Positions 549 to 13,674 of a DNA stretch of 15,186 bases are shown here, piece after piece. This DNA comes from an uncultured Thermoplasmatales archaeon (GTDB lineage: Archaea; Thermoplasmatota; E2; UBA202; DSCA01). Below the pieces are notes generated by a model. The model saw only the letters and a program-made list of their open reading frames with translations, made no database searches and was not told where the DNA came from. The translations under genes and the position numbers were made by a program. The stretch spans positions 1 to 15,186 of the forward strand of contig CAZESS010000030.1 in assembly GCA_964514975.1 (NCBI GenBank), given 5' to 3'. How positions within the stretch are numbered: position 1 is the first letter of the stretch; each line of letters begins with the position of its first letter.

Positions 549-1220
549 ATGAAGACACCGGCTGTCGTGGTGAACCTGAAAACCTACGAGAAGGGCACCG
601 GCATCCATGCCGTCAGGCTGGCTGAAACGATGCAGCAGGTGCACGAGGATACGGGGGCCTCGCTTGTCATCGCGGTGCAGGCCGCCGACCTCCATCGGGT
701 GGCGCAGGCGGTTGACATCCCGGTTTTCGCGCAGCACATGGATCCCGTTGTATATGGCAGCCATACGGGCTGGCTGCTGCCGGAGACGCTCGCCGGGGCG
801 GGTGCGGGCGGCGTGCTGCTCAACCATTCGGAGCACCGTCTTAGAACCAGCGAGGTGGCTGCGGCGGTGGAACGGGCGAATGATCTCGGTCTCGAAACGA
901 TTGTCTGCGCGGACAGCCCCGCTGTTGCAGGTGCGATGGCGGCGCTGCATCCCGGCTACGTGGCAATCGAGCCCCCGGAGCTCATCGGCGGCGACGTCTC
1001 GGTTACGTCGGCGGACCCGGGCATCGTGACGTGCTCCGTGGCACGGGTGGAGCAGGTGGCGCCGGCGGTGCGGGTGCTGTGCGGCGCTGGCGTGAAAACG
1101 GCCGGGGATGTCGAGGCGGCGCTGGAACTGGGCACCAGGGGCGTGCTGCTGGCCAGCGGCGTTGTCAAGGCTGCCGAGCCGGCGGAGGTGCTCCATGAGC
1201 TCGCCGGGGCAGTGGTATGA
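549..1220 (+). CDS. tpiA: Triosephosphate isomerase, archaeal type
   Basis: Motifs VVNLKTY, AQHMD, LLNHSEHR, AIEPPELIG, LCGAGVK and GVLLASGVVKA; 223 aa. Confidence 0.97.
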   Translation: MKTPAVVVNLKTYEKGTGIHAVRLAETMQQVHEDTGASLVIAVQAADLHRVAQAVDIPVFAQHMDPVVYGSHTGWLLPETLAGAGAGGVLLNHSEHRLRTSEVAAAVERANDLGLETIVCADSPAVAGAMAALHPGYVAIEPPELIGGDVSVTSADPGIVTCSVARVEQVAPAVRVLCGAGVKTAGDVEAALELGTRGVLLASGVVKAAEPAEVLHELAGAVV

Positions 1221-1873
1221 AACCCTTTGTCCATGTGAACTGCGCGATGTCGGTCGACGGCAAGATAGCGCTGGCCACAGGGGAACAGATACGTATCTCC
1301 TGTGAGGCGGACATGGCCCGGGTGCACCGGCTCCGCAATGACTCCGACGCCGTCCTGGTCGGCGTGGGCACCGTGCTGGCGGATGACCCGAAGCTGACGG
1401 TCAAGGAACGATATGTCCCGTCGGTGAGGCAGCCCCTGCGCGTGGTGCTGGACAGCGAGCTGCGGACGCCGTCCGACGCGGAGGTGATGAGCAATGCGGC
1501 GCCGACGCTGATCGCCACGGGCGGGCCGTCGTTTTCGCGTGGCAACGTGGCGGCGGTGAAATGTGGCGACGGGCGGGTGTCGCTGCCGGCGTTGCTGTCG
1601 CTGCTCCATGAGCGCGGCATCCGGCGGCTGCTCGTGGAGGGCGGTGAAACGGTTATCTATCAATTTTTGCGGAAGCGGCTGGTCGACCATCTTACGGTAT
1701 ATGTCGCCCCCATGGTTATCGGCGGCACCGGGACGCCGACGATGGCCGGCGGCACTGGGGCGGCAACCCCTGCCGAGGTCATCGGACTGGAACTTGCCGG
1801 GACCAAGCGGCTGGGCGAGGGCGTGCTTTTAACGTTGTATCCCTCAGTCGCCGGTGACCTGGACGATGAGTGA
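1217..1873 (+). CDS. arfC: 2,5-diamino-6-ribosylamino-4(3H)-pyrimidinone 5'-phosphate reductase (RibD C-terminal/Rib7-like; archaeal riboflavin pathway)
   Basis: Motifs KPFVHVNCAMSVDGKIA, HRLRNDSDAVLVGVGTVLADDPKLTV, PLRVVLDS and LLVEGG; no deaminase domain; ATGA overlap with the tpiA stop. Confidence 0.9.
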   Translation: MKPFVHVNCAMSVDGKIALATGEQIRISCEADMARVHRLRNDSDAVLVGVGTVLADDPKLTVKERYVPSVRQPLRVVLDSELRTPSDAEVMSNAAPTLIATGGPSFSRGNVAAVKCGDGRVSLPALLSLLHERGIRRLLVEGGETVIYQFLRKRLVDHLTVYVAPMVIGGTGTPTMAGGTGAATPAEVIGLELAGTKRLGEGVLLTLYPSVAGDLDDE

Positions 1874-2335: not shown

Positions 2336-2827
2336 ATGAACGTTGGCACGGATACATATGTGGCATCATCCGCCGTGATGCTCGGCGACGTCTCGCTGGG
2401 GAATCGATGCAGCGTCTGGGAGCACGCGGTCATCCGGGCGGACCTGAACAGCATCACGATCGGCGATGGAAGCAACGTGCAGGACTGCTGCGTGCTGCAC
2501 GTGTCACCGGACGACGAAATCAAAATCGGGACGGAGGTCTCGGTTGGCCATGGGGCCATCGTGCACGGCGCCCGGGTCGACGATGACTGCATCGTGGGCA
2601 TCAACGCGACGGTGCTCGACGGGGTGCACATCGAGGAGGGATGCATCATCGCCGCGAACGCGGTGGTACCCCCTGGAACGCATATCCCTGCGCACAGCCT
2701 GGCGGCCGGCGTCCCCGCACGGGTCGTCAGGCAGGACAAAGGGCTGCTCGACGCCATCCGTGAAAACGCGCGGCATTACCATCACCTGCGAGAGCAGTAT
2801 CTCAAGGAAACATATACGCGGTTTTAG
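2336..2827 (+). CDS. Gamma carbonic anhydrase family protein (YrdA/CaiE-like left-handed beta-helix)
   Basis: Hexapeptide repeats, IRAD, SNVQD, and three putative metal-binding His (VLH, GHGAIVHG); AGVPARVVR. Confidence 0.92.
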   Translation: MNVGTDTYVASSAVMLGDVSLGNRCSVWEHAVIRADLNSITIGDGSNVQDCCVLHVSPDDEIKIGTEVSVGHGAIVHGARVDDDCIVGINATVLDGVHIEEGCIIAANAVVPPGTHIPAHSLAAGVPARVVRQDKGLLDAIRENARHYHHLREQYLKETYTRF

Positions 2828-3949
2828 GGCTCGTAGCCCAGCATGCCGAACGCGAAGGCCCAGCGCTCCCCAACCCGGTTTTTGTGCACATTGTCCAGCT
2901 CGTAGTTCCGCGCCGTGATGTGTGACTGCGATGCGATGTACCTGGTGAAGCGCTCCCGGTGGTCGTCGAACCCGCTGAGGGACAGCGCGGTGTAGAGGCG
3001 CTCGAGCTGCTCGATGGGATGCTGCACGAACTGCTCGTAGCCAACCTCGACATGCCTGCCGTCGGGGATGCTCGAGTGGCTGGCTTCATAGGAACGGTAG
3101 AGCGCCTCATATGTATCGAGGATTGCCTCGCCCATCTGCTCCTGCGAGGGCGGCCGCTGGACGGTGTAGCGGGGCAGCACCCGGGTCATGAACTTCATCA
3201 TGGAGGCGTAGACGTCGTAGGGGTTGCGGCGGATGTGGATGAAGCGTGCGTCGGGGAACATGTCAAGGAGCACCGGTATCCGGGCGGTGTTCGCCGGGTT
3301 TTTGAGCACCAGCCGGCGTCCCTCCCAGGTGTAGGTGAGCTTTTTGAGAAAGTGACGGTATGTCCGGCGCCACATGGCCTGCATGGTGCGCGGTGCGCTG
3401 TCGAGGGGGACGGTGGCATTGTAGTAGCGCATGTTGTGGGGGAAAATCCAGCCGTTGTAATAGGCGTAGGGGGGTGAGTGACCCGAGCGGGTATTCCTCT
3501 TCCTGGGGCAGGTCGGCGCCCATGGGGACCTCGTCCATCGGCCTGGTGTCGGGGATGCTCGCCGCCACGATAGATTTCAGGGCGGGGTTGCCAAGGAAGG
3601 CGCCCGGGACGAGGGAATGGAAGGTGGAGCAGTAGCCGAACTGCTCGTCGATGGCGAGCAGGTTGTGAAGATAGGTGGTGCCGCTACGCCAGTGACCGAT
3701 GATGAACACCGGATGCTTTTCGATGGCGGTGTCGGCGACGGCGCTGCCATATCGGACGCTGTCGAGCAGGCGGAAGGGCGCCAGGATGGTGCTAATCAGC
3801 CCGGCGTAGAGCAATCGTGGCACGTAGCGGCCTGCAATACGGAAATGATTTTGTGCCAGCAGCCTGAGCAACGTTGTCGTGTTGGCGCCGGCAAGCGGCT
3901 CGTACATGACGTCGAACGGGTCTTCTAGGATTTCCCACTCCGTGGCCAT
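2824..3949 (-). pseudogene. PAPS-dependent sulfotransferase family gene split by a +1 frameshift in a G6/C6 run (3469..3474); about 374 aa if restored. Could be a pseudogene, a sequencing error or recoding
   Basis: The N-terminal ORF has the 5'-PSB loop PVFIIGHWRSGTTYLHNLL and RPMD...PQEEE. The C-terminal frame has LVLKNPANTARI, FPDARFIHIRRNPYDV and YEQFVQHP. Deleting one C gives the continuous read LTP-YAYYNGWIFPHNMRYY. Confidence 0.85.
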
Positions 3950-3987: not shown

Positions 3988-4014
3988 ACCCGCACCCCCT
4001 TATTTCCACTGGAA
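3988..4014 (-). repeat. ORB-like 27-bp element, copy 1 (TTCCAGTGGAAATAAGGGGGTGCGGGT)
   Basis: TTCCA-N-TGGAA dyad plus G-string; 24/27 and 25/27 identical to copies 2 and 3; lies between the divergent sulfotransferase and GT4 promoters. Confidence 0.8.
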
Positions 4015-4083
4015 CTGCTACGGGGGCAGGGGGCGAGCTAACCTTAATAAGCAATGCGGCATTCATCTGTAAAGAGGGCGAGC

Positions 4084-5100
4084 ATGAAAATCTGCATGGT
4101 TACCGGGCTGCAGAAGCTGGGCAGGATGCTGTCGTTCACCAGCGCCGGCGGGATGGGCACACAGGTCCCCATGCTGGCGGAACGCCTGCGCAGCCGGGGA
4201 TTCGAGGTCTCCATCGACGACCCCACGGGATGCGATGTCATCCACCTGCACAACCCCATGCCCCAGTTCGTGCCGCTCATCCTCAGGGCAAAGAAGCGCG
4301 GCACGCCCGTGGTCATCCACGCCCGCCATCTCCCCGAGCTCGTCAAAGGCGGCTTCAAGTTCGAATCATTGATCCATCCGCTGTTCACCCGGTACTCCCG
4401 CTGGCTGTACAACCAGGCCGACCTCGTCATCTGTGCGACACCCTACGTCCGGCGGTGGATGGAGGACAACCAGGTATCCTCGGCCCTGACGGTCATCCCC
4501 AACGGTGTCAACCTCGAGCGATTTGCCTACAGCGAGGAAAAGCGACGCCGTTTCCGTGAGCGACACGGCGTCGGCGACCGGTGCGTCGTGTTCTCGGTCG
4601 GTCTGCTCATCCCGCGGAAGGGGGTCCATGATTTCATCGAGACCGCACGGCGGCTGCGGCCACGCGACGACTACGCCTTCTTCTGGGCGGGCTCCACCGA
4701 GCCGGGGCTCGAACGCGTTGATATATCGGATGCGCCGGACAACGTCACCTTCCTCGGCCACGTTCCCTTCGACCGCATCGGCGAGCTGTACTCGGGCGGC
4801 GACATCTTTTTCTTTCCGACCCATGCGGAGAGCTACGGCAACGTGCTCTTCGAAGCCGCCGCCGCGAAACGATTGCTCCTCATCAGAGACATCGACATCT
4901 ACCGGAGTTGGCTCCGGCACGGCGAAAACTGCCTGAAAGGCGACAGCGCTGTGGCGTTCACCGGGGCCATCGAACAGATGCGGCAGGATGACGAACTGCA
5001 GGAACGGCTGCGGCAGGGTGCCCGGAAGCTGGCCGAAAAACATGACATCTCCCAAACCGTCGACCTGCTGGCCGATGCGTATACCCGGCTGGTAGCATGA
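4084..5100 (+). CDS. Glycosyltransferase family 4 (GT-B), similar in style to glycolipid glucosyl/galactosyltransferases
   Basis: Motifs MKICMV, DVIHLHN, ADLVIC, VIPNGVN, VGLLIPRKG, FLGHVP and DIFFFPTHAESYGNVLFEA (EX7E). Start ATG 4084 preferred over 4054. Confidence 0.9.
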   Translation: MKICMVTGLQKLGRMLSFTSAGGMGTQVPMLAERLRSRGFEVSIDDPTGCDVIHLHNPMPQFVPLILRAKKRGTPVVIHARHLPELVKGGFKFESLIHPLFTRYSRWLYNQADLVICATPYVRRWMEDNQVSSALTVIPNGVNLERFAYSEEKRRRFRERHGVGDRCVVFSVGLLIPRKGVHDFIETARRLRPRDDYAFFWAGSTEPGLERVDISDAPDNVTFLGHVPFDRIGELYSGGDIFFFPTHAESYGNVLFEAAAAKRLLLIRDIDIYRSWLRHGENCLKGDSAVAFTGAIEQMRQDDELQERLRQGARKLAEKHDISQTVDLLADAYTRLVA

Positions 5101-5675
5101 TCGGCGACGTCATCGTCGACTTTTTCAGCGGCTTCGGCGGCCTCGGCCTCATCATCGCGCTCTACCTGATATTCCTGGTGGACAGCATGATATTCCCGGC
5201 GCTCCCCGACTTTTTTCTGCTGATGATTTATGCGACAGATCCGCACAGCCTCCCCTGGGCGCTCACCCTGTTCTGCGTGGCGGTCGCCGGCAGCTTCTCC
5301 GGGAACACCCTGCTCTACCTGCTCGTTAAAAAGGCCTCGGTACCCGGCTTTATCGCTCGGGCCATGCAGAAATACAGCGACCTGCTCATCGTCAACGACG
5401 AGCGCATCCTGCTGATAAACCGCGTTGCCCCTGTTTTGCCGTATACCGGGGCTTTCATCGCCGTCAACAACTGGCGATACCGCCTGTCCATCACCTACAT
5501 CGTGGTCGGCGCCGCCGTAAAGTTCGGCGTCCTGCTGATGCTCTCCGGGACGTTTTACCGGCTGTTCAAACGAGGCGTGGCACAAAATGCGACGCTCGTA
5601 CTCATCATCACGACCATCGCCGTCAGCCTCGTCGCCTCCTACATCGAAAAACGGCGGCTGCGCCGCCCAAGCTAA
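5097..5675 (+). CDS. Integral membrane protein, DedA/VTT (SNARE-associated)-like
   Basis: About 5 hydrophobic segments, FLVDSMIFPALPD, AGSFSGNTLLY and a conserved-type R-x-x-P (NRVAPVLP); ATGA coupling to the GT4 stop. Confidence 0.65.
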   Translation: MIGDVIVDFFSGFGGLGLIIALYLIFLVDSMIFPALPDFFLLMIYATDPHSLPWALTLFCVAVAGSFSGNTLLYLLVKKASVPGFIARAMQKYSDLLIVNDERILLINRVAPVLPYTGAFIAVNNWRYRLSITYIVVGAAVKFGVLLMLSGTFYRLFKRGVAQNATLVLIITTIAVSLVASYIEKRRLRRPS

Positions 5676-7021
5676 TGCCCGAGCGAGATGTCTATCCGGG
5701 GGAACGGCAGCATCCTGCACCGGAAGCGCACCGCGACGTCGAAAAAATGCGATACGACCCGGCAATCAACGCCCAGGCCATCTCGCGGGGAGCGCATGGT
5801 GAGGTCGAGCGCGTTGTGCCCGAGCACCGACACCTGGCGCATCGGCTCTATCTCACAGGTCCCGTTGAGATACACGGCCTCGCTCCCGTTGCTGTACACG
5901 CCGGTGACCGGGCCGGGTGACTCCCAGAGATAGATGGCCCGCCAGAACGACGACGACAGATTTGTGTCCAGATAGGTATGGACATCGCAGGCCATCGAGC
6001 AGTTCAGGGTGACATGGTGCTCGCCGTGCCGGGCTGTCAGCCCGATGCTCGTCGGGTAATATGCGTCGTAGGCAGGGGCATATACCATGTTACCGTAACA
6101 AAAATCGATGTCGGAAAAGGTGAGATAGCGTCCCTTGGGGGAAACAAGGTAGAGGATGCCGAAGGCTGGCCCCTCGCTGACCCAGAACGGAATATTGCCA
6201 TAGAACATGCTCCATCCGTTGTCGAACGAGGCCCATATCCAGTCGTAGCCGAACGGGTTGCTCTCCGTGGCAAGACCGATGCTTGCTGGCAGGTCGCTGC
6301 GATACGACAGCCACCAGGAGGCAAGCCGGCCGTATGCCCTGATCGTTTCCGGGGCGCTGCCGCCCTGCAATGGATTGCTGTAGGTCCAGTTGCCCCAGAC
6401 GTGCTCATAGTAGCCCGTGCCGATACAACTCTGTGTCACGTTGTCCATGGTAAACGTGCCCGAGACATCGCAGCGGGGGATGAACCCGTAGCGGTAGGAG
6501 CCGAGCCCCATCGGGAGCACCGCGTCGGAGATGCCGTCAGCGACCCATTTCGGCGGCGTCGTGGCCTCGAGCTGCAAATCAACGGTGACGTTTTCTCGTT
6601 CGAAATGGACGCGATAGGAGGGATAGCTGCCCTGCATCCACGAATCATGGTAGCGCAGGTCGACGCGGTTTTTTTCAAACGAGAGCGTACCGATCGGGTC
6701 GCCATATGACCCGAGGGAATAGCTTACACCGCTTGAAAGGTTGAACAGGGTGAGAAAAAGATTGCAGGCTGGGGTCTCCCGCTCGTATTCAAAGGAAGAT
6801 GTCAGCGTCCATCGCGCCCCGTTGTCGAGCGTCATAATGGCGTCGATGTTCCACCATTCACGGCTGCAGGGGTAATGGTCGCCCTCATCCGCCGCCGTCC
6901 AGGTAGATGCACCGGTGTACACCGACCCGGGATGGCCAGGTGACATGGGGCAGAGCATCATCTGCAATGGGATGACACCGAGCAGCATGACGGTCACGCA
7001 GCAGACAATGACGGGACGCAT
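5672..7021 (-). CDS. Secreted or membrane-anchored lipocalin-like protein (AttH/CrtC/tocopherol-cyclase-like fold)
   Basis: N-terminal hydrophobic signal, EWWN motif, GTGYYEHVWG, GYDWIWASFDNG, YPT and WESP. Start at 7021 inferred from TATA TTTTTTATA at about 7049..7041; ATG 7030 is an alternative. Confidence 0.65.
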   Translation of the reverse strand: MRPVIVCCVTVMLLGVIPLQMMLCPMSPGHPGSVYTGASTWTAADEGDHYPCSREWWNIDAIMTLDNGARWTLTSSFEYERETPACNLFLTLFNLSSGVSYSLGSYGDPIGTLSFEKNRVDLRYHDSWMQGSYPSYRVHFERENVTVDLQLEATTPPKWVADGISDAVLPMGLGSYRYGFIPRCDVSGTFTMDNVTQSCIGTGYYEHVWGNWTYSNPLQGGSAPETIRAYGRLASWWLSYRSDLPASIGLATESNPFGYDWIWASFDNGWSMFYGNIPFWVSEGPAFGILYLVSPKGRYLTFSDIDFCYGNMVYAPAYDAYYPTSIGLTARHGEHHVTLNCSMACDVHTYLDTNLSSSFWRAIYLWESPGPVTGVYSNGSEAVYLNGTCEIEPMRQVSVLGHNALDLTMRSPRDGLGVDCRVVSHFFDVAVRFRCRMLPFPRIDISLGH

Positions 7022-7054
7022 GGTGTCCATACCGCCCGCATATAAAAAAACATT

Positions 7055-7081
7055 ACCCACACCCCCCTGTTTCCACTGGAA
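7055..7081 (-). repeat. ORB-like 27-bp element, copy 2 (TTCCAGTGGAAACAGGGGGGTGTGGGT)
   Basis: 26/27 identical to copy 3; sandwiched between two divergent TATA boxes (about 7041..7049 on minus and 7083..7090 on plus). Confidence 0.8.
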
Positions 7082-7108
7082 CTTTAATATAGCTGCGGGA
7101 TTTCACCT

Positions 7109-8743
7109 ATGCTGCTGACGCTGCTCGACGGCTACGTCGACGAGCCCGCATGCCTAGGCGTCCCGCCCTACATATCTCCATACATCAGGTATGCAGCAGG
7201 CGCCATCATCGATGCCGGGCATCGCTGCCAGTACCGCACCGTCGACCAGTGGCGACAGGGTATGTCACTCGACGGTGAGCTGCTCCTCGTCATCACCGGG
7301 GCGCTCGTCCCGGGCCGGTACCTCCGCGGTATGCCCCTGTCATACAGGGAGCTCAAGACCATCTCCGCAACGTTCAACGGCCCGATCATCCTCGGAGGCT
7401 CGGCAGCCCTGTACGGCATTGGCCATGGCGGCGGAGCACCGCCGCGCGCGGCGGACGACCTCGTCGACTACACCGCCGAAAAAGATGCCGATACGTTTAT
7501 CTACGACGTGCTGCATGATACCTTGCGGCAGCGCCATCGCACACGGCAGGAATGGCGGCGCTGGGCTCTTGCAGGCGCATCGGTCGTCACCGGCCATCCT
7601 GATTTCCCTGACACCCTGCTCGCGGAAATCGAGACCTACCGGGGATGCCCCCGGTATCTGACGGGCGGGTGCAGCTTCTGCATGGAGCCGCTCTACGGCA
7701 GGCCGTCGGTTCGCTCCGTCGAGAGTATCGTGGCAGAAATCGGGCGGCTGCATCACTATGGTGTCCGGCATTTCAGGCTGGGATGTCAGTCCTGTTTTTA
7801 CTCCTATGGTTCCGATGACATCGGCAGCCGGGAAACACCGCGGCCAAACGTCGCAGCGATACACCAACTACTCACACAGATATGGGAGGCAGCTCCACAT
7901 ATCAGGGTGCTGCACATCGACAATGCCAACCCGTCGGTCATCGCATGCTATCCCGACGAGGCTGCGGAGATAACACGCCTGATAGCCCGCTACGGCACGG
8001 CGGGGAACACGGCAGCGCTCGGCATGGAAACAGCGGATGCAGCGGTCCGCAGGGCAAACAATCTCAACGCAACGCCCGAAGATACGATGGCTGCCATCCG
8101 CCTCATCAACGACATCGGCGGCAGGCGCGGCGACAACGGTATGCCCCAGCTGCTGCCCGGTATAAACCTGCTCTACGGACTGCCCGGTGAGAGCGACGAT
8201 ACCTCCCAAAAAAACCGTGCTTTCCTGAAACAGGTAAAACGGGAGAGATTGCTCCTGCGGCGAATCAACATCCGTCAGGTCGTGCCCGTCCGTGGCCATC
8301 ACACGGGAACGGACACGGGGGCGCTGCAGCGGTTTAAACAATGGGTGAACGAGTCTATAAACCGGCCGATGCTCCGACAAATCGTGCCCCGGGGAACAGT
8401 CCTGGCGGACGTCTACCTTGAGATACATCGGGGCAAGCAGACATTCGGCCGGCAAATTGGCTCCTATCCACTGCTGGTCTGCTTGCCATACCAGGAACAA
8501 ACAGGGTGCTATGTCGACGTGAAGCTGACAGGGCATGGCTACCGGAGCGTTACCGGCGTCGTATATCCGCTTAACATAAATGAGGCATCGCTCGATGCGC
8601 TGGCGTCGCTGCCAACGGTCGGTGAAAAACGGGCCGCCCGCATCATCGCCGGTCGCCCCCATACAGATATGGATGAGCTCGCCATGGTCATGGACGACGA
8701 GTTCAGGCCCGGAGCGATATCAGGCTGGTGCCGATTCGGGTAG
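7109..8743 (+). CDS. Radical SAM protein with TRAM-like and C-terminal helix-hairpin-helix domains (COG1031-like, uncharacterised)
   Basis: N-terminal LDGYVDEPACLGVPPYISPYIRY, EIETYRGCPRYLTGGCSFC (CX7CX2C), HIDNANP, RRINIRQV, GRQIGSYP, and NINEASLDALASLPTVGEKRA (HhH). Confidence 0.88.
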   Translation: MLLTLLDGYVDEPACLGVPPYISPYIRYAAGAIIDAGHRCQYRTVDQWRQGMSLDGELLLVITGALVPGRYLRGMPLSYRELKTISATFNGPIILGGSAALYGIGHGGGAPPRAADDLVDYTAEKDADTFIYDVLHDTLRQRHRTRQEWRRWALAGASVVTGHPDFPDTLLAEIETYRGCPRYLTGGCSFCMEPLYGRPSVRSVESIVAEIGRLHHYGVRHFRLGCQSCFYSYGSDDIGSRETPRPNVAAIHQLLTQIWEAAPHIRVLHIDNANPSVIACYPDEAAEITRLIARYGTAGNTAALGMETADAAVRRANNLNATPEDTMAAIRLINDIGGRRGDNGMPQLLPGINLLYGLPGESDDTSQKNRAFLKQVKRERLLLRRINIRQVVPVRGHHTGTDTGALQRFKQWVNESINRPMLRQIVPRGTVLADVYLEIHRGKQTFGRQIGSYPLLVCLPYQEQTGCYVDVKLTGHGYRSVTGVVYPLNINEASLDALASLPTVGEKRAARIIAGRPHTDMDELAMVMDDEFRPGAISGWCRFG

Positions 8744-9436
8744 CCTGTCCCGCCATGTACCGCCGCGGAGCTCTGACAGATGGACAACGGTCAGCGATAC
8801 TGTTTCGTCGGTGAGCAGTTCCTCCATCCCGGATGTGTGTCCCTCGCCGACGAAGGCGACGATGCTGTCATACATGTCCAGTGCCTGCCTGAGCCGGGCT
8901 GCCATGTGCCGGTTTCGCTCCTCGATGAGGATGGTGTAGAGCTCGGGAAGGGTGGAGTGCATCTCCTGCAGATAGGTCTCCGGCTCGGTTTCAAACGACT
9001 CGATTTCCTTTTCAACGCGCTTTTTGCTGATGAAGAGCGACGAGAGGCCGCTCACCATGAACAGCAGCTTTTTTCGCAGCGGGATGCTCCGCCACAGCCT
9101 GGTCATCACCATCCTGACGTCTAGGTCGATGCAGAGGATACCGATGGCGCTGTCCCGCGCTCTCCGGGCGGCGGCGGCCATCTCCGACCCGGTGGCAACG
9201 CCGTATTTTTTCGCTATCCGTTCCTGCAGCGATGCCAGCAGGGAATGGAAAAAGGGCAGGTCGCCGCGCTGTCCACCCGGTGACAGCAGCGCCTGGAGGC
9301 GGCTGCGGTCGAGTTCCAGGGCGACAACGTCCGGCTGCACTCTGGTGATGATGCCCTCCACCTGGGATGCGATGTCGAAGACATGGCCGACGCCGACCAG
9401 CACGACCTGTTTTTCTTGTTCGTCTACAGCAGCCAC
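8720..9436 (-). CDS. TraB/PrgY/GumN family protein
   Basis: Motifs LVGVGHV, PDVVALELDRSR, GSEM, ILIEERNRHMA and VGEGH; GTG start overlapping the hypB end. Confidence 0.85.
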   Translation of the reverse strand: MAAVDEQEKQVVLVGVGHVFDIASQVEGIITRVQPDVVALELDRSRLQALLSPGGQRGDLPFFHSLLASLQERIAKKYGVATGSEMAAAARRARDSAIGILCIDLDVRMVMTRLWRSIPLRKKLLFMVSGLSSLFISKKRVEKEIESFETEPETYLQEMHSTLPELYTILIEERNRHMAARLRQALDMYDSIVAFVGEGHTSGMEELLTDETVSLTVVHLSELRGGTWRDRLPESAPA

Positions 9437-10062
9437 GCTACCAGCTCGTCGATGCCCTCATCGTGTCTGGCATCGGTCAAAAAATATTGTTTCGGTGCTA
9501 TCTCCTCGATGTCGGCGACGATGCCGTCGATGTCGACGTCCATGTGCTCGGCCAGGTCTATCTTGTTGACCACGACGAAGTCGGCCGTCTGGAAGATAAG
9601 CGGATGTTTTTTCACCATGTCGTCGCCCTCGGTAACCGATATCACGACGCCTCGTTTGTCGCAGCCGAGGGAGAAATCAGCGGGGCAGACAAGGTTGCCA
9701 ATGTTTTCTATGAATACGATGTCAAGGCTTTCAAGGTCGAGGTCGTCCAGTGCATGTTCGATGAGATGCGCATCGAGATGGCATTCCTTGCCGGTGTTGA
9801 TGTTCACCACGGGCACATGGTGCTCCCTGATGCGGCGGTAGTCACTGTCGCCGGTGACGTCGCCCACGATGACGCCGACCCGGTATGTGCCGAGCAGTCG
9901 GTCGGCTATCTTTTCGATGAGCAACGTCTTTCCGGAGCCAATGGCGCCCATGAGGTCGATGGCCGTCATGCCGGCCTGCCTGAATCGGTCGGCGTTGTCA
10001 CGCGCTATTTTCTCGTTTTCCTCGAAGATGTCCTTGCCGACGGCGACGTCAACCTTGTGCAT
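9424..10062 (-). CDS. hypB: Hydrogenase nickel incorporation GTPase HypB
   Basis: Motifs MGAIGSGKT (P-loop), NTGKECHLDAH, ENIGNLVCP, SVTEGDD, KHP and NKIDL. Confidence 0.95.
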   Translation of the reverse strand: MHKVDVAVGKDIFEENEKIARDNADRFRQAGMTAIDLMGAIGSGKTLLIEKIADRLLGTYRVGVIVGDVTGDSDYRRIREHHVPVVNINTGKECHLDAHLIEHALDDLDLESLDIVFIENIGNLVCPADFSLGCDKRGVVISVTEGDDMVKKHPLIFQTADFVVVNKIDLAEHMDVDIDGIVADIEEIAPKQYFLTDARHDEGIDELVAWLL

Positions 10063-10067
10063 GATAC

Positions 10068-10295
10068 CTACAAGGCATCGTCATCTTTAAATGCTTCCGT
10101 CCGCACTGCATCCAGCAGTCCGTGGGCGTAGTTGATGCAGCCAAAGGCGGTAAAAAAATCCTGCTTTTCCAGATAATATCGAGCGTCGTCATAATAACGC
10201 CGGGCCATGCCAACAACATCCTTTGCCCCCATCCCGGCGACATGTTTTTCGAACAATGCCAGGTCTTTTTCGATGCGCTCACGCTGATCCATCAT
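10068..10295 (-). CDS. DUF357 domain-containing small archaeal protein
   Basis: MARRYYDDARYYLEKQDFFTAFGCINYAHGLLDA matches the DUF357 pattern; SD GAGGTGA upstream; coupled to the hflX stop. Confidence 0.85.
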   Translation of the reverse strand: MMDQRERIEKDLALFEKHVAGMGAKDVVGMARRYYDDARYYLEKQDFFTAFGCINYAHGLLDAVRTEAFKDDDAL

Positions 10296-11569
10296 GTCTG
10301 CCTCACCTCCGCGCCCCGCTGCTGGCAGCGCCCCGTTATCTTGTCCTTCACGCGCTCGCTGCAGGTGACGCGGACGACGCTGCTCCCGTCGTTGCTAACC
10401 CTGCATATGCGGGCCTGCTGGTTAAAAATAAACGACATGTCGTCCTCGTCGACGCCGTCGGGGAACACGATGTCCATCTCCACCCGGTCTGGCAGGGCAT
10501 CGTAGATTTCGTCTACCAGCTCGCCGAGGTTGTCGCCGGTCCGAGCGGACAGGAACAGGCAGGGCCGGTTGCCAACCACGTCCTCGGTGCACGACCGCAC
10601 CGCCTGCTGCTCCCGTCCGGTGAGCCGGTCGGCCTTGTTCATCCCCACGATGATGTCGGGATGGTTTTCCATCTCCATGATCTCCCGCAGCGACACGGAT
10701 GCTTTTTCCCTGATGGTGTCCAGGCTCTCGCTGGCGTCGATGAGCAGGACGATGACGTCGGAGAGCGCGATTTCCTCGAGCGTTGGATGGAAGGCGTCCA
10801 CCAGCCAGTGGGGCAGGTCGCGGATGAACCCGACCGTATCGGTGATGAGAATGGGCATCGCATGCGTTCCCCGGTCATGTTTCAGGCGCCGCGTGGTGGT
10901 GGACAGCGTCGAAAACAGGCGCTCCTCGACCGCTACCTCTTCGTCGGACAGCTGGTTGAGCAGGCTGCTTTTTCCGGCGTTGGTGTACCCGGCGATGGAG
11001 ACGAGATAGAAGCCCTTCTCGCGGCGGTTTTTCCGGTGGGCCTCCCGGACCTTCTCGGTTTTGTCCAGATCCTCCTTTATGTTTTTCATCTGTTTTTTGA
11101 TCATCTCGTAGTAGTTGGCGACCTCGTACTGGCCGCCGGCCATGAACCCCGGGTGCTCGCCGGTTCTGGCGCGGTGGATGAGCTCCCGGACATAGGGTCG
11201 CTCGTAGCGGAGCGAGGCAAGGCGGACCTGCAGCTTTGCCTCCTTTCGCTGCGCCCTGTCCGCAAATATGTTCAGGATGAGCCGGATGCGGTCGTACACC
11301 GTGACGTTCAGCTCTTTTTCCATGGTGTACCACTGCGATGGTCGCAGGCGCTGGTCGACGATGGCGCAGTCGATGTCATGTCCATCGACATATTCCGCTA
11401 CCTCGGCTATCTTGCCCGCGCCGATGTATGACGCCGGGTCCGGTGCGTCCCGCTGCTGGATGAAGGTCTGCTGGACATGATAGTCTAGCGCCCGGGCGAG
11501 ATGCCGCAGTTCCTCGTTGTCACGCTGGAGTGACACGATGACGGCGTTTTTTTCGTCCATCTCGTTCAT
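10292..11569 (-). CDS. hflX: Ribosome-splitting GTPase HflX
   Basis: YIGAGK, LRPSQ, DRIRLILNIF, EAKLQV, G1 GYTNAGKS, LFSTL, G3 DTVGF and G4 NKAD. The true start may be ATG 11560 by promoter spacing. Confidence 0.95.
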   Translation of the reverse strand: MNEMDEKNAVIVSLQRDNEELRHLARALDYHVQQTFIQQRDAPDPASYIGAGKIAEVAEYVDGHDIDCAIVDQRLRPSQWYTMEKELNVTVYDRIRLILNIFADRAQRKEAKLQVRLASLRYERPYVRELIHRARTGEHPGFMAGGQYEVANYYEMIKKQMKNIKEDLDKTEKVREAHRKNRREKGFYLVSIAGYTNAGKSSLLNQLSDEEVAVEERLFSTLSTTTRRLKHDRGTHAMPILITDTVGFIRDLPHWLVDAFHPTLEEIALSDVIVLLIDASESLDTIREKASVSLREIMEMENHPDIIVGMNKADRLTGREQQAVRSCTEDVVGNRPCLFLSARTGDNLGELVDEIYDALPDRVEMDIVFPDGVDEDDMSFIFNQQARICRVSNDGSSVVRVTCSERVKDKITGRCQQRGAEVRQT

Positions 11570-11595
11570 TTAATGGGGGTGGGGTACAAAACCTT

Positions 11596-11622
11596 TTCCA
11601 GTGGAAATAGGGGGGTGTGGGT
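11596..11622 (+). repeat. ORB-like 27-bp element, copy 3 (TTCCAGTGGAAATAGGGGGGTGTGGGT)
   Basis: Perfect TTTCCA-G-TGGAAA dyad plus G6 string; abuts the DP1 stop codon and sits directly upstream of the putative hflX TATA (TTTTGTA, 11591..11585 minus). Confidence 0.8.
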
Positions 11623-13061
11623 CAGGTGGTGAAGTTCATCAGGCTCGTCCGCCCGCTATCCAGGGACACGATGGGCACCTTGGCCGGGTCGGGCATGAAG
11701 TTCATCATCCGCTGGTAGTCCGTTTGCGACTGCCATGTAGAGGCGTTGATAAGCTGTACGCCCCGGTAAGAGTCGATCGCCGTCGTATGCACATGGCCGG
11801 TGACGAAGACATCCGGGATGCGGTCGATGACCATGTAGTCATGCAGCTCCGGCGCCAGCGGGGTAATTTCCCCGTAGATGGGAGCCATGTGCCGCCGCAT
11901 CAGCATGTGCTTCATGATCTCCGTCGGCTGGTTCTGGTTGATGCCGATGCGCGTCGAAAAATCAAACAATGACTGCCCATGGTACAGCAGCACCTCCAGC
12001 CCGTCCAGGCGGACATAGGCCGGGTTGCCCACGAACACCACATTTAAACCAGAAAAAATCCGCTGGATGTCCTCATCAAACGTCGGCTGCGGGAGCGCCT
12101 GCCGCACCGCGTCATGGTTCCCTGGCTGCAGCACAATCGTCACATCGCGCGGCACCGCCTCCAGTTCCCCCGCCAGCGCCTTGTATTGCTCGTAGATGTC
12201 CTCGATGTACAGGTCATCCTCCTGGTTGGGATAGATGCCGACACCCTCGACGGCATCTCCCGGTATGACGAGATATCGTATCTGCCGGGCGACATCCTGC
12301 TGGCGGCTTGTTCCAACCTCGCCGTTCATCCACCGCATAAAGCTACGCCATGCATCCTCCAGGAAGGTCTTGCTGCCAATGTGCACGTCGGCGGCGAAGG
12401 CGACATACCCGTCGTTGTTTCCCCCCTGGTTTTGCTGCCCGATCGGCACGTCCGGCCGGATCAACTGCTGCCCGATGAGAAGACCGTTGCGTCCCGCCGT
12501 GCCGACGACGCCGACAACCTCGTCCTCCACCAGCGTGTCCGCCATCGCCGCGTCCTCCTCCGGGATGTAGACGGTGGCGCTGTCGCTCTCGTCCTCGATG
12601 TCCACCAGGACATGTCCCTTTGAGCTTCGTGTAACGCTGTCGACGATGCCGATGACCGCAACCGGGCCGTCCCTGCCCTTCGCCTTTTTGACCGGGATGA
12701 CGTTTTTCATCTCCTGGCGTTTCCGGAGCAGCCGGTAGAGCTGGCTGTACCGGTCGCGGAACAGCTTCGTGAAATCGGTGATGTCCCCCTCACAGCAGCT
12801 TTTCCCGGTGACATCCTGTATGACCTCGAGCTGCACCGGACGCGCCGGGGCTTGCACGGCATCGATTGCGCCGTCATCTCCGGGGAACACGTCCTTGACG
12901 TCGTCCAGCAGGATGTTGAGCGGTTTTCCGTCAAGGCATTCGAGCACCCGCTGCGCGCTGCTCAGGCAGTCTCCCTGTCGCACGAGATAGTCCACGGCCT
13001 CCGACTGGATGAAGACATGCCGCTTCTGAAAGTACTCGATGACTTTCCGTCGCTCATTCAT
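11622..13061 (-). CDS. polD1: DNA polymerase D (pol II) small subunit DP1, 3'-5' exonuclease
   Basis: FRDRY, OB fold (VIGIV...IEDE), and metallophosphoesterase motifs ADVHIGSKTF, PGDAVEGVGIYPNQ, PGNHD, YHG, RRHMAP, TGHVH and STWQSQTDYQ. Start ATG 13061 chosen because ATG 13073 lies inside the SRP RNA. Confidence 0.96.
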   Translation of the reverse strand: MNERRKVIEYFQKRHVFIQSEAVDYLVRQGDCLSSAQRVLECLDGKPLNILLDDVKDVFPGDDGAIDAVQAPARPVQLEVIQDVTGKSCCEGDITDFTKLFRDRYSQLYRLLRKRQEMKNVIPVKKAKGRDGPVAVIGIVDSVTRSSKGHVLVDIEDESDSATVYIPEEDAAMADTLVEDEVVGVVGTAGRNGLLIGQQLIRPDVPIGQQNQGGNNDGYVAFAADVHIGSKTFLEDAWRSFMRWMNGEVGTSRQQDVARQIRYLVIPGDAVEGVGIYPNQEDDLYIEDIYEQYKALAGELEAVPRDVTIVLQPGNHDAVRQALPQPTFDEDIQRIFSGLNVVFVGNPAYVRLDGLEVLLYHGQSLFDFSTRIGINQNQPTEIMKHMLMRRHMAPIYGEITPLAPELHDYMVIDRIPDVFVTGHVHTTAIDSYRGVQLINASTWQSQTDYQRMMNFMPDPAKVPIVSLDSGRTSLMNFTT

Positions 13062-13068
13062 TTTAGCC

Positions 13069-13383
13069 GGCATGGACGCGTCCGCGGTGGGCGGGAAGCA
13101 CCGGGCAGCGACGGCCCAGCGTTTTTCTCAATCCCGCGATCCCCTGAGCACCATGAGTCATCGGCCGGGCTGCTCCCTTCCGGGCCTGACCCTCTGTCCG
13201 AAACCAAGATGGACAGCCGACCCTCCGGCCGGCTGCGGCCATCACCTCTGGTCCCAGGGGACGGGATTTCATCGTCCAACGCTGGATCGCTGCCTGGACT
13301 CCACGCCGCCGTTGGACTTCGACCCCGACTGAAGGCGATTTCCGGTGACAGGAGACGCCTAACTTCCCGGTCTAGTCCACACC
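13069..13383 (-). ncRNA. ffs: Archaeal signal recognition particle (7S/SRP) RNA, about 315 nt
   Basis: The minus strand has the helix-8 signature GGTCAGGCCCGGAAGGGAGCAGCC, a helix-6 GGAG tetraloop and an Alu-like 5' domain (CTAGACCGGGAAGTTAGGCGTCTCCTGTCACCGGAAATCGCC). Terminal helix 1 is GGTGTGGAC/GTCCATGCC, and a BRE/TATA AAAGGTTATTAAAT lies upstream (13424..13411). Confidence 0.93.
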
Positions 13384-13422
13384 TTTGGCCAGCATCCATA
13401 TAACCCCGCGATTTAATAACCT

Positions 13423-13674
13423 TTACCATGGCCGCCGGAGCACCAGGAACTCGTTGCGGAAAAAGCGGTAAAACAGCCAGGCCAGCGCGCCGGTCACGAA
13501 GGCCACGTCCCGGGCGACATGCCACATCGACGCACGTTCAGCGTCGCTGCCGTAATGATAGCCCGCCATGTAGGCATCCTGCGCCAGAAACACGATGGCT
13601 ATGATGAGCACTGCCACCACGATGATGTCGAGATAAAAAAGCCAGCGTCTCCATTGTTTCGGCTCAACCGCCAT
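13423..13674 (-). CDS. Small two-TM hypothetical membrane protein (83 aa)
   Basis: MAVEPKQWRRWLFYLDIIVVAVLIIAIVFL... has two hydrophobic helices; SD-like GGGAGG before ATG 13674. Confidence 0.7.
   Translation of the reverse strand: MAVEPKQWRRWLFYLDIIVVAVLIIAIVFLAQDAYMAGYHYGSDAERASMWHVARDVAFVTGALAWLFYRFFRNEFLVLRRPW

Follow-up and report, generated by a model that had tools for sequence, protein, structure and literature searches.

Can origin recognition boxes (ORBs) that stand singly between genes, kilobases apart, mark the replication origin of an archaeal chromosome? The question is raised by a 15,186-bp stretch of DNA (hereafter, the window), the entire contig C30 of a draft Thermoplasmatota metagenome-assembled genome (MAG; 1.96 Mb, i.e. 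1,955,736 bases, in 66 contigs, 57.7% GC, estimated completeness 98.9%). The window carries three copies of a 27-nt element (ORB1, ORB2 and ORB3; Table 1). We suggest, with a probability of roughly 55%, that ORB2 and ORB3 mark the chromosomal replication origin of the uncultured order to which this archaeon belongs, in the form of a stretched oriC fused to promoters, and its firing is a prediction.

Three ORBs, all in one window

The consensus TTCCAGTGGAAAYARGGGGGTGYGGGT has three exact sites in the window (no mismatches in any), and the copies are 24/27, 25/27 and 26/27 identical to each other, as the initial annotation of this DNA had reported. Allowing up to three mismatches gave no extra site in the window, and 0 of 200 dinucleotide-preserving shuffles of it gave any match. 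With a position weight matrix (PWM) made from 38 distinct copies (64 in total) in relatives, the three boxes scored between 42.3 and 48.2 bits, against −0.0 bits for the next-best site in the window and a maximum of 2.7 bits in 20 shuffles. This gap indicates that the window holds no weaker or degenerate copies, in genes or elsewhere. All three boxes are intergenic, again as first described. ORB1 is placed between a sulfotransferase open reading frame (ORF) on the minus strand and a GT4 glycosyltransferase gene on the plus strand, and ORB2 between a CrtC-like gene (minus strand, probably starting at the ATG at 7029–7031) and a gene for a radical-SAM protein with a helix-hairpin-helix domain (plus strand; hereafter, the rSAM gene). 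ORB3 reaches from the stop codon of the gene for DP1, the small subunit of DNA polymerase D (PolD), towards the start of the HflX gene, and its last base (11622) is shared with the DP1 stop triplet. The proximity of DP1 to the third copy had been noted before and is borne out by the Pfam domains of the protein.

In their sequence, the three 27-mers are canonical ORBs: the dyad TCCAGTGGA is followed by a G-string, as had been proposed, and the window box matches the archaeal and Methanomassiliicoccales consensus (PMC4153887 Table 2) and is identical to the orc1-adjacent boxes of sister orders. Because of this identity, the cognate Orc1-1-type protein of the genome and the extreme conservation of the boxes (both described below), we read them as Orc1 sites, which, as predicted from these three features, they almost certainly are.

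A scan of the whole assembly for the 12-nt core TTCCAGTGGAAA recovered three copies, all of them in the window, and a search with the 27-mer allowing up to six substitutions likewise returned only these three sites. The initial annotation had considered an Orc1/Cdc6 regulon with promoter placement throughout the genome. A dispersed regulon and a mobile-element family are both ruled out by the genome-wide copy number of three, all on one 15-kb contig. The generic mini-ORB TCCANNNGAAA has 61 matches genome-wide versus ~39 expected from composition; seven are followed by GGGG, three of them being the ORBs. Only one other pair of mini-ORBs lies within 600 bp, with both members on the plus strand, no G-string and 54% A+T in between. 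No partial ORB was found at the contig ends of the genome, and the 61 A/T-rich islands in the genome were covered for nearby ORBs only by these genome-wide motif scans.

The inverted pair is conserved across the order

Relatives were searched with the exact pattern of the core plus GGGG, and boxes were detected in 36 of 38 genomes of the order: 11/12 in the family of the window (f1) and 25/25 in a second family (f2). The pattern missed G008 and G014, the latter being the sole genome of a third family, and both hold a copy with one mismatch. Pairs on the same contig (23 in 22 genomes) are all ordered (−,+) and 3.5–5.0 kb apart; in G005 and G009 the second copy has one mismatch and lies 3.1 and 3.6 kb away, also in the order (−,+).

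Synteny was profiled by tblastn of the window proteins against 40 fetched loci. Every pair in these loci brackets the same cassette. In the window, this cassette comprises the rSAM gene, read from ORB2, and a minus-strand operon of four genes (HflX, DUF357, CobW/HypB and TraB), read inward from ORB3. An ORF at 9367–10131 on the plus strand was rejected as an antisense artefact of the CobW/HypB gene, of the kind produced by a high-GC genome, because only the opposite strand is open in a relative with 32% GC; the corrected map thus shows two convergent units, each starting at a box and reading inward. One box is always bordered on its outer side by DP1, with the signal recognition particle (SRP) RNA gene behind it. 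The other box has the CrtC-like gene on its outer side in f1, and a hexapeptide transferase (Hexapep family) or another gene in some f2 genomes. On the inside of the DP1-side box, some genomes have HflX and others rSAM, with the polarity of the box unchanged. Both inward units remain associated with the boxes despite these inversions, and the boxes also persist where the outer neighbours have changed or the rSAM gene has been lost (G005 and G009, in which the pair is still present).

The loci span 29–62% GC and their flanking proteins are at 40–55% identity, and all retain the G-rich 27-mer; this retention points to strong purifying selection on the box. Positional conservation in relatives, set as a test of the elements in the initial annotation, is very strong for ORB2 and ORB3 beside DP1. 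ORB1 was found between the sulfotransferase and GT4 genes in G001–G004 and is absent there in G007, G010 and G012. Among the loci examined, a box at this position is limited to the genus of the window, and ORB2 and ORB3 alone are conserved order-wide.

The pair has the polarity of compact origins

ORB2 (−) and ORB3 (+) form an inverted pair with the dyads inward and the G-strings outward. The outward G-strings had been thought unusual, a view that other origins do not bear out. Genomes from sister orders within the class each carry a single copy of the exact pattern, and it lies within 3 kb of orc1 in 8 of 17 loci. The layout there is a full ORB (−), ~145–190 bp of A/T-rich DNA, a degenerate ORB (+) and then orc1, also with inward dyads and outward G-strings. 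In oriC1 of Haloarcula hispanica, the left (CCCCCC) and right (GGGGGGGG) G-strings form the outer ends of the inverted ORBs, and the G-string is contacted by the AAA+ domain and essential (PMC3936714). Matching the polarity of these references, ORB2 and ORB3 are canonical in relative orientation and only the spacer is abnormal. It consists of 4,514 bp of coding DNA with ~60% GC, and the spacing is ~25 times that of compact origins.

The compact sister origins (L104–L107, L112 and L085) have in common with the window the core TTCCAGTGGAAA followed by GGGG and the inward dyads. They differ in their short A/T-rich spacer and in the degenerate second box just upstream of orc1, and the flanks inspected show neither fusion to a promoter nor a cassette. 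The GC-rich sister genomes (54–56% GC over the loci) keep a clear DNA unwinding element (DUE), with 67–73% A+T in 100-nt stretches. A motif (GAAGTATC, GTGAGTAT or GTTAGTAT) is found twice in the DUE of all six compact origins, at similar offsets from the left ORB, and may be a second conserved origin element in a position comparable to the Sulfolobus ucm.

Other arrangements were also detected outside the order of the window. The order is ORB-orc1-(1.6 kb)-DP1 in G040, which belongs to another order, and G102 (sister order, family f4) has a solitary ORB between DP1 and DP2 (L082, 1327–1353). The latter is not a general layout, as 0/30 other f4 loci show it at up to two mismatches. A remnant with three mismatches was seen by eye between DP1 and DP2 in G095 (L192), the other 29/30 being without an ORB. 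One orphan ORB of a sister order is located just downstream of an operon for a Hel308-like helicase and CGI-121.

The initiator gene is unlinked to the boxes

The window genome has one orc1/cdc6 gene, on contig C15. The encoded protein (415 aa) scores 583.6 bits against the ORC1-type equivalog NF001625 (cut-off 501), and among proteins of solved structure it is closest to S. solfataricus Orc1-1 (2QBY_A, E 9e-114) and A. pernix ORC1 (2V1U_A, E 6e-104), which we take to be the two Orc1 proteins crystallised on ORB DNA. The genome thus encodes a cognate initiator of the Orc1-1 type, whose gene is not adjacent to the boxes as it would be in an origin of the oriC1 type. In the order, orc1 was found in 37/39 genomes, as a single copy except in G013 (three distant paralogues), and was never on the ORB-bearing contig (37/37 genomes with orc1). 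In G019, the boxes lie at 120–125 kb of the 201-kb contig C23, which has no orc1.

An alternative origin at orc1 itself was rejected. In the window genome, where the intergenic region upstream of orc1 is 84 bp long, ORB-like repeats are absent within 18 kb around the gene. Upstream stretches of 260 nt from the orc1 genes of 30 genomes of the order, the window genome (G000) included, are likewise free of ORBs. These upstream regions (L153–L182) share a conserved GAACATGCTAACACATC…ACAAGGTTTATTTA in the family of the window and a related TATA-like core in the other family, and this upstream stretch is probably the promoter of orc1 and may include an operator. Divergent Orc1/Cdc6 paralogues are encoded in G003 (C4:83025–83900; 24% identity, 15 kb from ORB3) and, with 36–39% identity, on contigs C30, C20 and C22 of G013; these extra copies may belong to integrated elements, and the window genome is without them.

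Promoter-like elements are fused to the boxes

A/T-rich sequences directly abut the dyad ends of ORB2 and ORB3, and ORB2 has a second one near the end of its G-string (Table 1). We counted as TATA-like any octamer with at least 7/8 A/T within 14 nt of the box end. Such octamers were found at the dyad end in 58/64 copies of the order and on the G-string side in 24/64, and in 4.3% of random 14-nt stretches of the window. The dyad-end sequences are AGTTTATAT in the low-GC family, CTTTAATATA at ORB2 of the window, and AAGCTTTTTTAT or AAGGTTTTGT at ORB3 in the genus. The start codons are 27–31 nt (rSAM) and 26 nt (HflX) from the box, a spacing that we infer to be the geometry of leaderless-type archaeal promoters. 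The dyad end (…CTGGAA) occupies the place expected for the B recognition element (BRE), and the position of the boxes relative to the putative core promoter elements is fixed.

Replication origin or operator

Our reading of ORB2 and ORB3 as an origin is based on several lines of evidence. Neither the genome nor its relatives have boxes beyond this locus, and the initiator is a canonical one of the Orc1-1 type. The pair keeps the polarity of compact origins. It also persists through rSAM loss, a change of the outer neighbour and either orientation of the cassette, and orc1 offers no alternative origin. In addition, the neighbourhood is of an origin type, with DP1, SRP RNA and a GTPase; the neighbours of haloarchaeal oriC1 include genes for a GTP-binding protein, cdc6, a signal sequence peptidase and a DNA polymerase (polA) (PMC4010727 Fig. 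2). The putative non-canonical, kilobase-scale origin put forward in the initial annotation stays the best-supported reading.

In Sulfolobus, Orc1-1·ATP bound at ORB2 and ORB3 recruits open MCM hexamers between the boxes, with their N-terminal tiers face to face (PMC12141716). By analogy, Orc1 at each box in the window would recruit MCM to the dyad-proximal inner side, i.e. onto the promoter. The adjacent promoter region, rather than a long DUE, would supply the easily opened DNA, and Orc1 occupancy would thus be coupled to transcription of the two inward units. ORB1 would be a genus-specific auxiliary site.

A number of observations weigh against an origin at this locus. No A/T-rich DUE was detected between or beside the boxes: within the pair no 100-bp stretch has more than 53% A+T, and none in the window exceeds 62%, the maximum being at the first bases of the contig. 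The ORBs are directly abutted only by TATA-like boxes of ~10 nt. The initial annotation was right that the window shows no clustering around a DUE and has GC-rich genes between the inverted pair, and also that cdc6 is missing, as no cdc6/orc1 gene was found in the window by Pfam and domain searches. The characterised origins considered here all have two inverted ORBs around a DUE at short range, and the loss of either box leaves oriC1 of Sulfolobus and of H. hispanica dead (PMC12141716, PMC3936714). The H. hispanica cdc6D locus has a single ORB in the intergenic region on either side of the gene, and its authors regarded it as a deficient origin (PMC3528665); some archaea replicate without an origin or Cdc6 (PMC5663688). 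Orphan ORBs are listed for Ca. M. intestinalis (PMC4153887 Table 2), and full-length ones away from orc1 and DP1 are present in sister orders at L110 (G086:C11, 9661–9687), L111 (G150:C59, 7994–8020) and L081 (G087:C59, 1501–1527). The TATA-like octamers at the dyad ends fit the role of a transcription factor equally well. Finally, no sign of firing in the form of a skew change point was obtained from G024:C7 or G019:C23, nor from the compact origin in G056:C6 that served as a positive control.

Strand composition was profiled as third-position GC and AT skew, using a change-point model corrected for gene strand and 300 permutations. In G003:C4 (~65 kb), the third-position AT skew switches sign between ORB2 and ORB3, which 0/300 permutations reach and the control origin does not show. 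A weaker change point between the boxes of G001:C95 was reached by 31/300 permutations. The long contigs of the window genome have no replichore-wide skew and show local AT-skew switches away from the ORBs; the ORF picker used here miscalled genes in this high-GC genome, for example an antisense ORF over TIM and RibD_C. Given the positive control without signal and the local switches without ORBs, skew says nothing either way.

The main alternative is that the boxes are solely promoter elements controlled by Orc1, i.e. operators of the rSAM gene, of the HflX-DUF357-CobW/HypB-TraB operon and of the outward CrtC-like gene, with replication starting elsewhere or independently of an origin. In Sulfolobus, one Orc1 paralogue functions as a transcription factor. 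The excess of TATA-like octamers at the dyad end over the background, the box in the BRE or upstream position, the location of ORB2 between two divergent TATA-like boxes and the solitary ORB of G102, at what would be the promoter of a replication gene, are all consistent with operators. However, the pair survives rSAM loss, a change of the outer neighbour and a swap of the unit next to the box, and the conserved (−,+) polarity is not required of an operator. Moreover, a canonical initiator would be left without origin boxes in a 98.9%-complete genome and, beyond this locus, in 36/38 relatives. We take this alternative seriously and consider it unlikely.

A more specific form of the origin reading is a transcription-assisted split origin. 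Here, a single Orc1 on each promoter-fused box would load one MCM hexamer inward, promoter opening would replace the DUE, convergent transcription would push the two hexamers together, and flips of the cassette would be harmless in a symmetrical module. In yeast reconstitutions, distant, inverted ORC sites work. As a whole, this split-origin scheme is quite unlikely to hold.

The boxes could instead be auxiliary or titration sites, similar to datA or to oriC2D of H. hispanica, with the true origin in an unassembled or unrecognised region. The E. coli datA and DARS sites are initiator boxes away from a DUE, as in the window, but they act beside a separate, complete oriC, and no primary origin on which such sites could act was found here by the genome motif scans or in the orc1 upstream regions. 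The assemblies are drafts (66 contigs in this case) and many MAG contigs of the order end at or within ~100 nt of an ORB, which would leave room for a missed origin, and in H. hispanica ORB clusters can act to down-regulate an origin (PMC3936714). On the other hand, the contig ends of the window genome have no partial ORB, the orc1 flanks of the 30 genomes are free of ORBs, and ~37 independent assemblies are unlikely all to have lost the same primary origin. The known titrating region has 11 ORBs in 722 bp (PMC3936714), while here there are two or three single boxes. We give this explanation little credence.

The cassette between the boxes is repeatedly inverted

The orientation of the cassette was mapped on a DP1 tree (IQ-TREE quick; 32 rows, 30 ingroup and 2 outgroup), from which G006 and G027, with DP1 off their contigs, were omitted. 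Parsimony requires at least nine changes of orientation. The orientation differs even between the near-identical sisters G030 and G020 (end branches 0.027 and 0.045), and the assembly of G012 holds both an rSAM-ORB-DP1 and an rSAM-ORB-CrtC-like junction (L041 and L043, contigs C54 and C8, respectively), indicating that the cassette occurs there in both orientations. G018:C92 shows no difference from G012 across its 216 aligned residues and probably comes from the same organism.

In family f2, the two copies of a pair are identical for a further 9–36 nt on the dyad side (19 pairs), and the inverted repeats total 38–82 nt with up to two mismatches per side. In the family of the window, the repeat identity ends at the box, and all five genomes of the genus share one orientation. 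Contigs from public reads (Logan contigs of three of the five runs listed) bridge ORB2 (5378–8944; 6839–8050) and ORB3 (10813–11723; 10083–11721) in the arrangement of the window. No strand-change joint at the boxes is listed in these contigs, which drop rare variants and are thus silent on orientation polymorphism. The simplest explanation is that the cassette flips by homologous recombination and gene conversion between the inverted boxes.

Could the 27-mers rather be the sites of a dedicated site-specific recombinase that flips the cassette? The number of orientation changes, the two junction types in G012 and the extended inverted repeats of f2 would suit such a system. In contrast, neither the cassette and its surroundings nor the rest of the window showed a recombinase, invertase or transposase domain in Pfam and NCBIfam searches. 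The boxes fully match the pan-archaeal ORB consensus (PMC4153887 Table 2) and are identical to the orc1-adjacent boxes of sister orders. A flip alters nothing obvious, as the same kind of inward promoter stands at both ends, and homologous recombination between inverted repeats of 27–82 bp suffices. Such a recombinase system is very improbable. There is next to no chance that the boxes are termini of a miniature inverted-repeat transposable element or insertion sequence remnant (an alternative of the initial annotation), a solitary CRISPR repeat or a chance repeat: short intergenic inverted repeats are typical of such elements, but there are three copies per genome at a single locus, shuffles give no match, the positions are fixed across two families, and domain and RNA family searches of the window found no transposase and no repeat array.

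Comparison with known origins

In Thermococcales, oriC is beside cdc6-DP1-DP2, compact, and has many mini-ORBs. The window shares with it the linkage to the small subunit of PolD, and not the compactness or the adjacency of cdc6; DP2 of the window genome is on contig C1. The oriC1 of Sulfolobus and Saccharolobus (ORB1-ORB2-DUE-ORB3, with Orc1-1) resembles the window in the type of initiator, in ORBs composed of a dyad and a G-string, in the inverted pair and in the third box. It differs in its short A/T-rich DUE beside orc1-1 and in initiation at the junction of DUE and ORB3 (PMC12141716), whereas the window has 4.5 kb of genes as the spacer, no DUE and orc1 on another contig. The oriC1 of H. 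hispanica is compact and beside cdc6A, unlike the window pair (PMC3936714).

Among published systems, the oriC3-cdc6D* of H. hispanica comes closest to boxes separated by coding DNA (PMC3528665). The cdc6D boxes flank one gene, that of the initiator, in an arrangement that its authors considered non-functional, while the window pair flanks five non-initiator genes and is conserved across the order. In the same phylum, Methanomassiliicoccales have a nearly identical consensus, GTTCCAGTGGAAATGG-AGGGGTA with an optional further GGGGGT, and Ca. M. alvus has a gene flanked on either side by ORB pairs, ~1.8 kb apart (PMC4153887). The gene flanked there is orc1/cdc6.1, with a close ORB pair on each side; in the window, the boxes are single and orc1 is unlinked. 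The parts of articles returned by a literature search contain no account of origin recognition boxes in Thermoplasmatota, Thermoprofundales, Marine Benthic Group D, Poseidoniales or Marine Group II, and no invertible cassette between ORBs is described in the passages and listings covered.

The elements thus belong to the known archaeal ORB/oriC1 system, and the architecture is new. What is new is the combination of boxes split by kilobases and fused to promoters, a missing DUE, an unlinked orc1, repeated inversion of the cassette and conservation throughout the order. If the pair is a true origin, archaeal helicase loading would tolerate separation by kilobases, and initiation would be linked directly to transcription. 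The locus would then be a natural substrate for asking whether archaeal MCM hexamers must be loaded head-to-head at one spot. In practice, origin predictors that need an ORB cluster beside orc1 will not work for this lineage. Should the boxes serve as operators alone, a canonical initiator would be present in the lineage without a recognisable origin.

Gene content of the window

Genes were mapped by Pfam, NCBIfam and Rfam searches, and their coordinates are listed with those of the boxes and the promoter-like elements.

Table 1 Boxes, promoter-like elements and genes of the 15,186-bp window.
Feature	Position	Strand	Remarks
ORB1	3988–4014	−	third box, same direction as ORB2; exact match, PWM 44.9 bits
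ORB2	7055–7081	−	left member of the order-wide inverted pair; G-string left (outward), dyad right (inward); PWM 42.3 bits
ORB3	11596–11622	+	right member of the inverted pair; dyad left (inward), G-string end abuts the DP1 stop codon; PWM 48.2 bits
TATA-like box CTTTAATATAG	7082–7092	+	abuts the dyad end of ORB2, 17 nt before the rSAM ATG (7109)
Second TATA-like box TTTTTTTATAT	7040–7050	−	4 nt past the G-string end of ORB2, faces the CrtC-like gene; conserved within the genus
A/T-rich stretch AAGGTTTTGT (AAGCTTTTTTAT in congeners)	11586–11595	−	abuts the dyad end of ORB3, 26 nt before the HflX ATG (11569)
TIM	549–1220	+	
RibD_C	1217–1873	+	
UPF0047	1844–2320	−	
Hexapeptide transferase	2336–2827	+	
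Sulfotransferase, two ORFs	2824–3432 and 3263–3949	−	Sulfotransfer_3
GT4 glycosyltransferase	4054–5100	+	
Conserved unknown	5097–5675	+	
CrtC-like lipocalin-domain protein	5672–7060	−	Pfam PF07143, weak; outer neighbour of ORB2 in the family of the window
Radical-SAM protein with C-terminal helix-hairpin-helix (rSAM)	7109–8743	+	PF04055, PF12836; first inward-reading gene inside the pair
TraB/PrgY/GumN-family protein	8720–9436	−	PF01963; last gene of the minus-strand operon
CobW/HypB/UreG-family GTPase	9424–10062	−	
DUF357 small protein	10068–10295	−	PF04010
GTPase HflX	10292–11569	−	NCBIfam TIGR03156, 290 bits (cut-off 216.75); first gene of the operon from ORB3
DNA polymerase D small subunit DP1	11622–13073	−	Pfam DNA_pol_E_B, Metallophos and OB fold
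SRP (7S) RNA	13070–13382	−	upstream of DP1; Rfam RF01857, 188.7 bits

The TraB-family protein scores 119.8 bits against NCBIfam TIGR00261, under the cut-off of 178.35. An ORF at 13058–13525 on the minus strand (155 aa), apparently 90% conserved in relatives, was rejected as a protein gene, as it is actually the SRP RNA gene. Rfam reports a tRNA at 202–302 on the minus strand (101 nt, 57.3 bits), which may contain an intron, and ARAGORN finds no tRNA in the window. The Sulfotransfer_3 protein is spread over two overlapping ORFs, and two adjacent ORFs are also seen in relatives; this may be a conserved frameshift or a two-gene arrangement.

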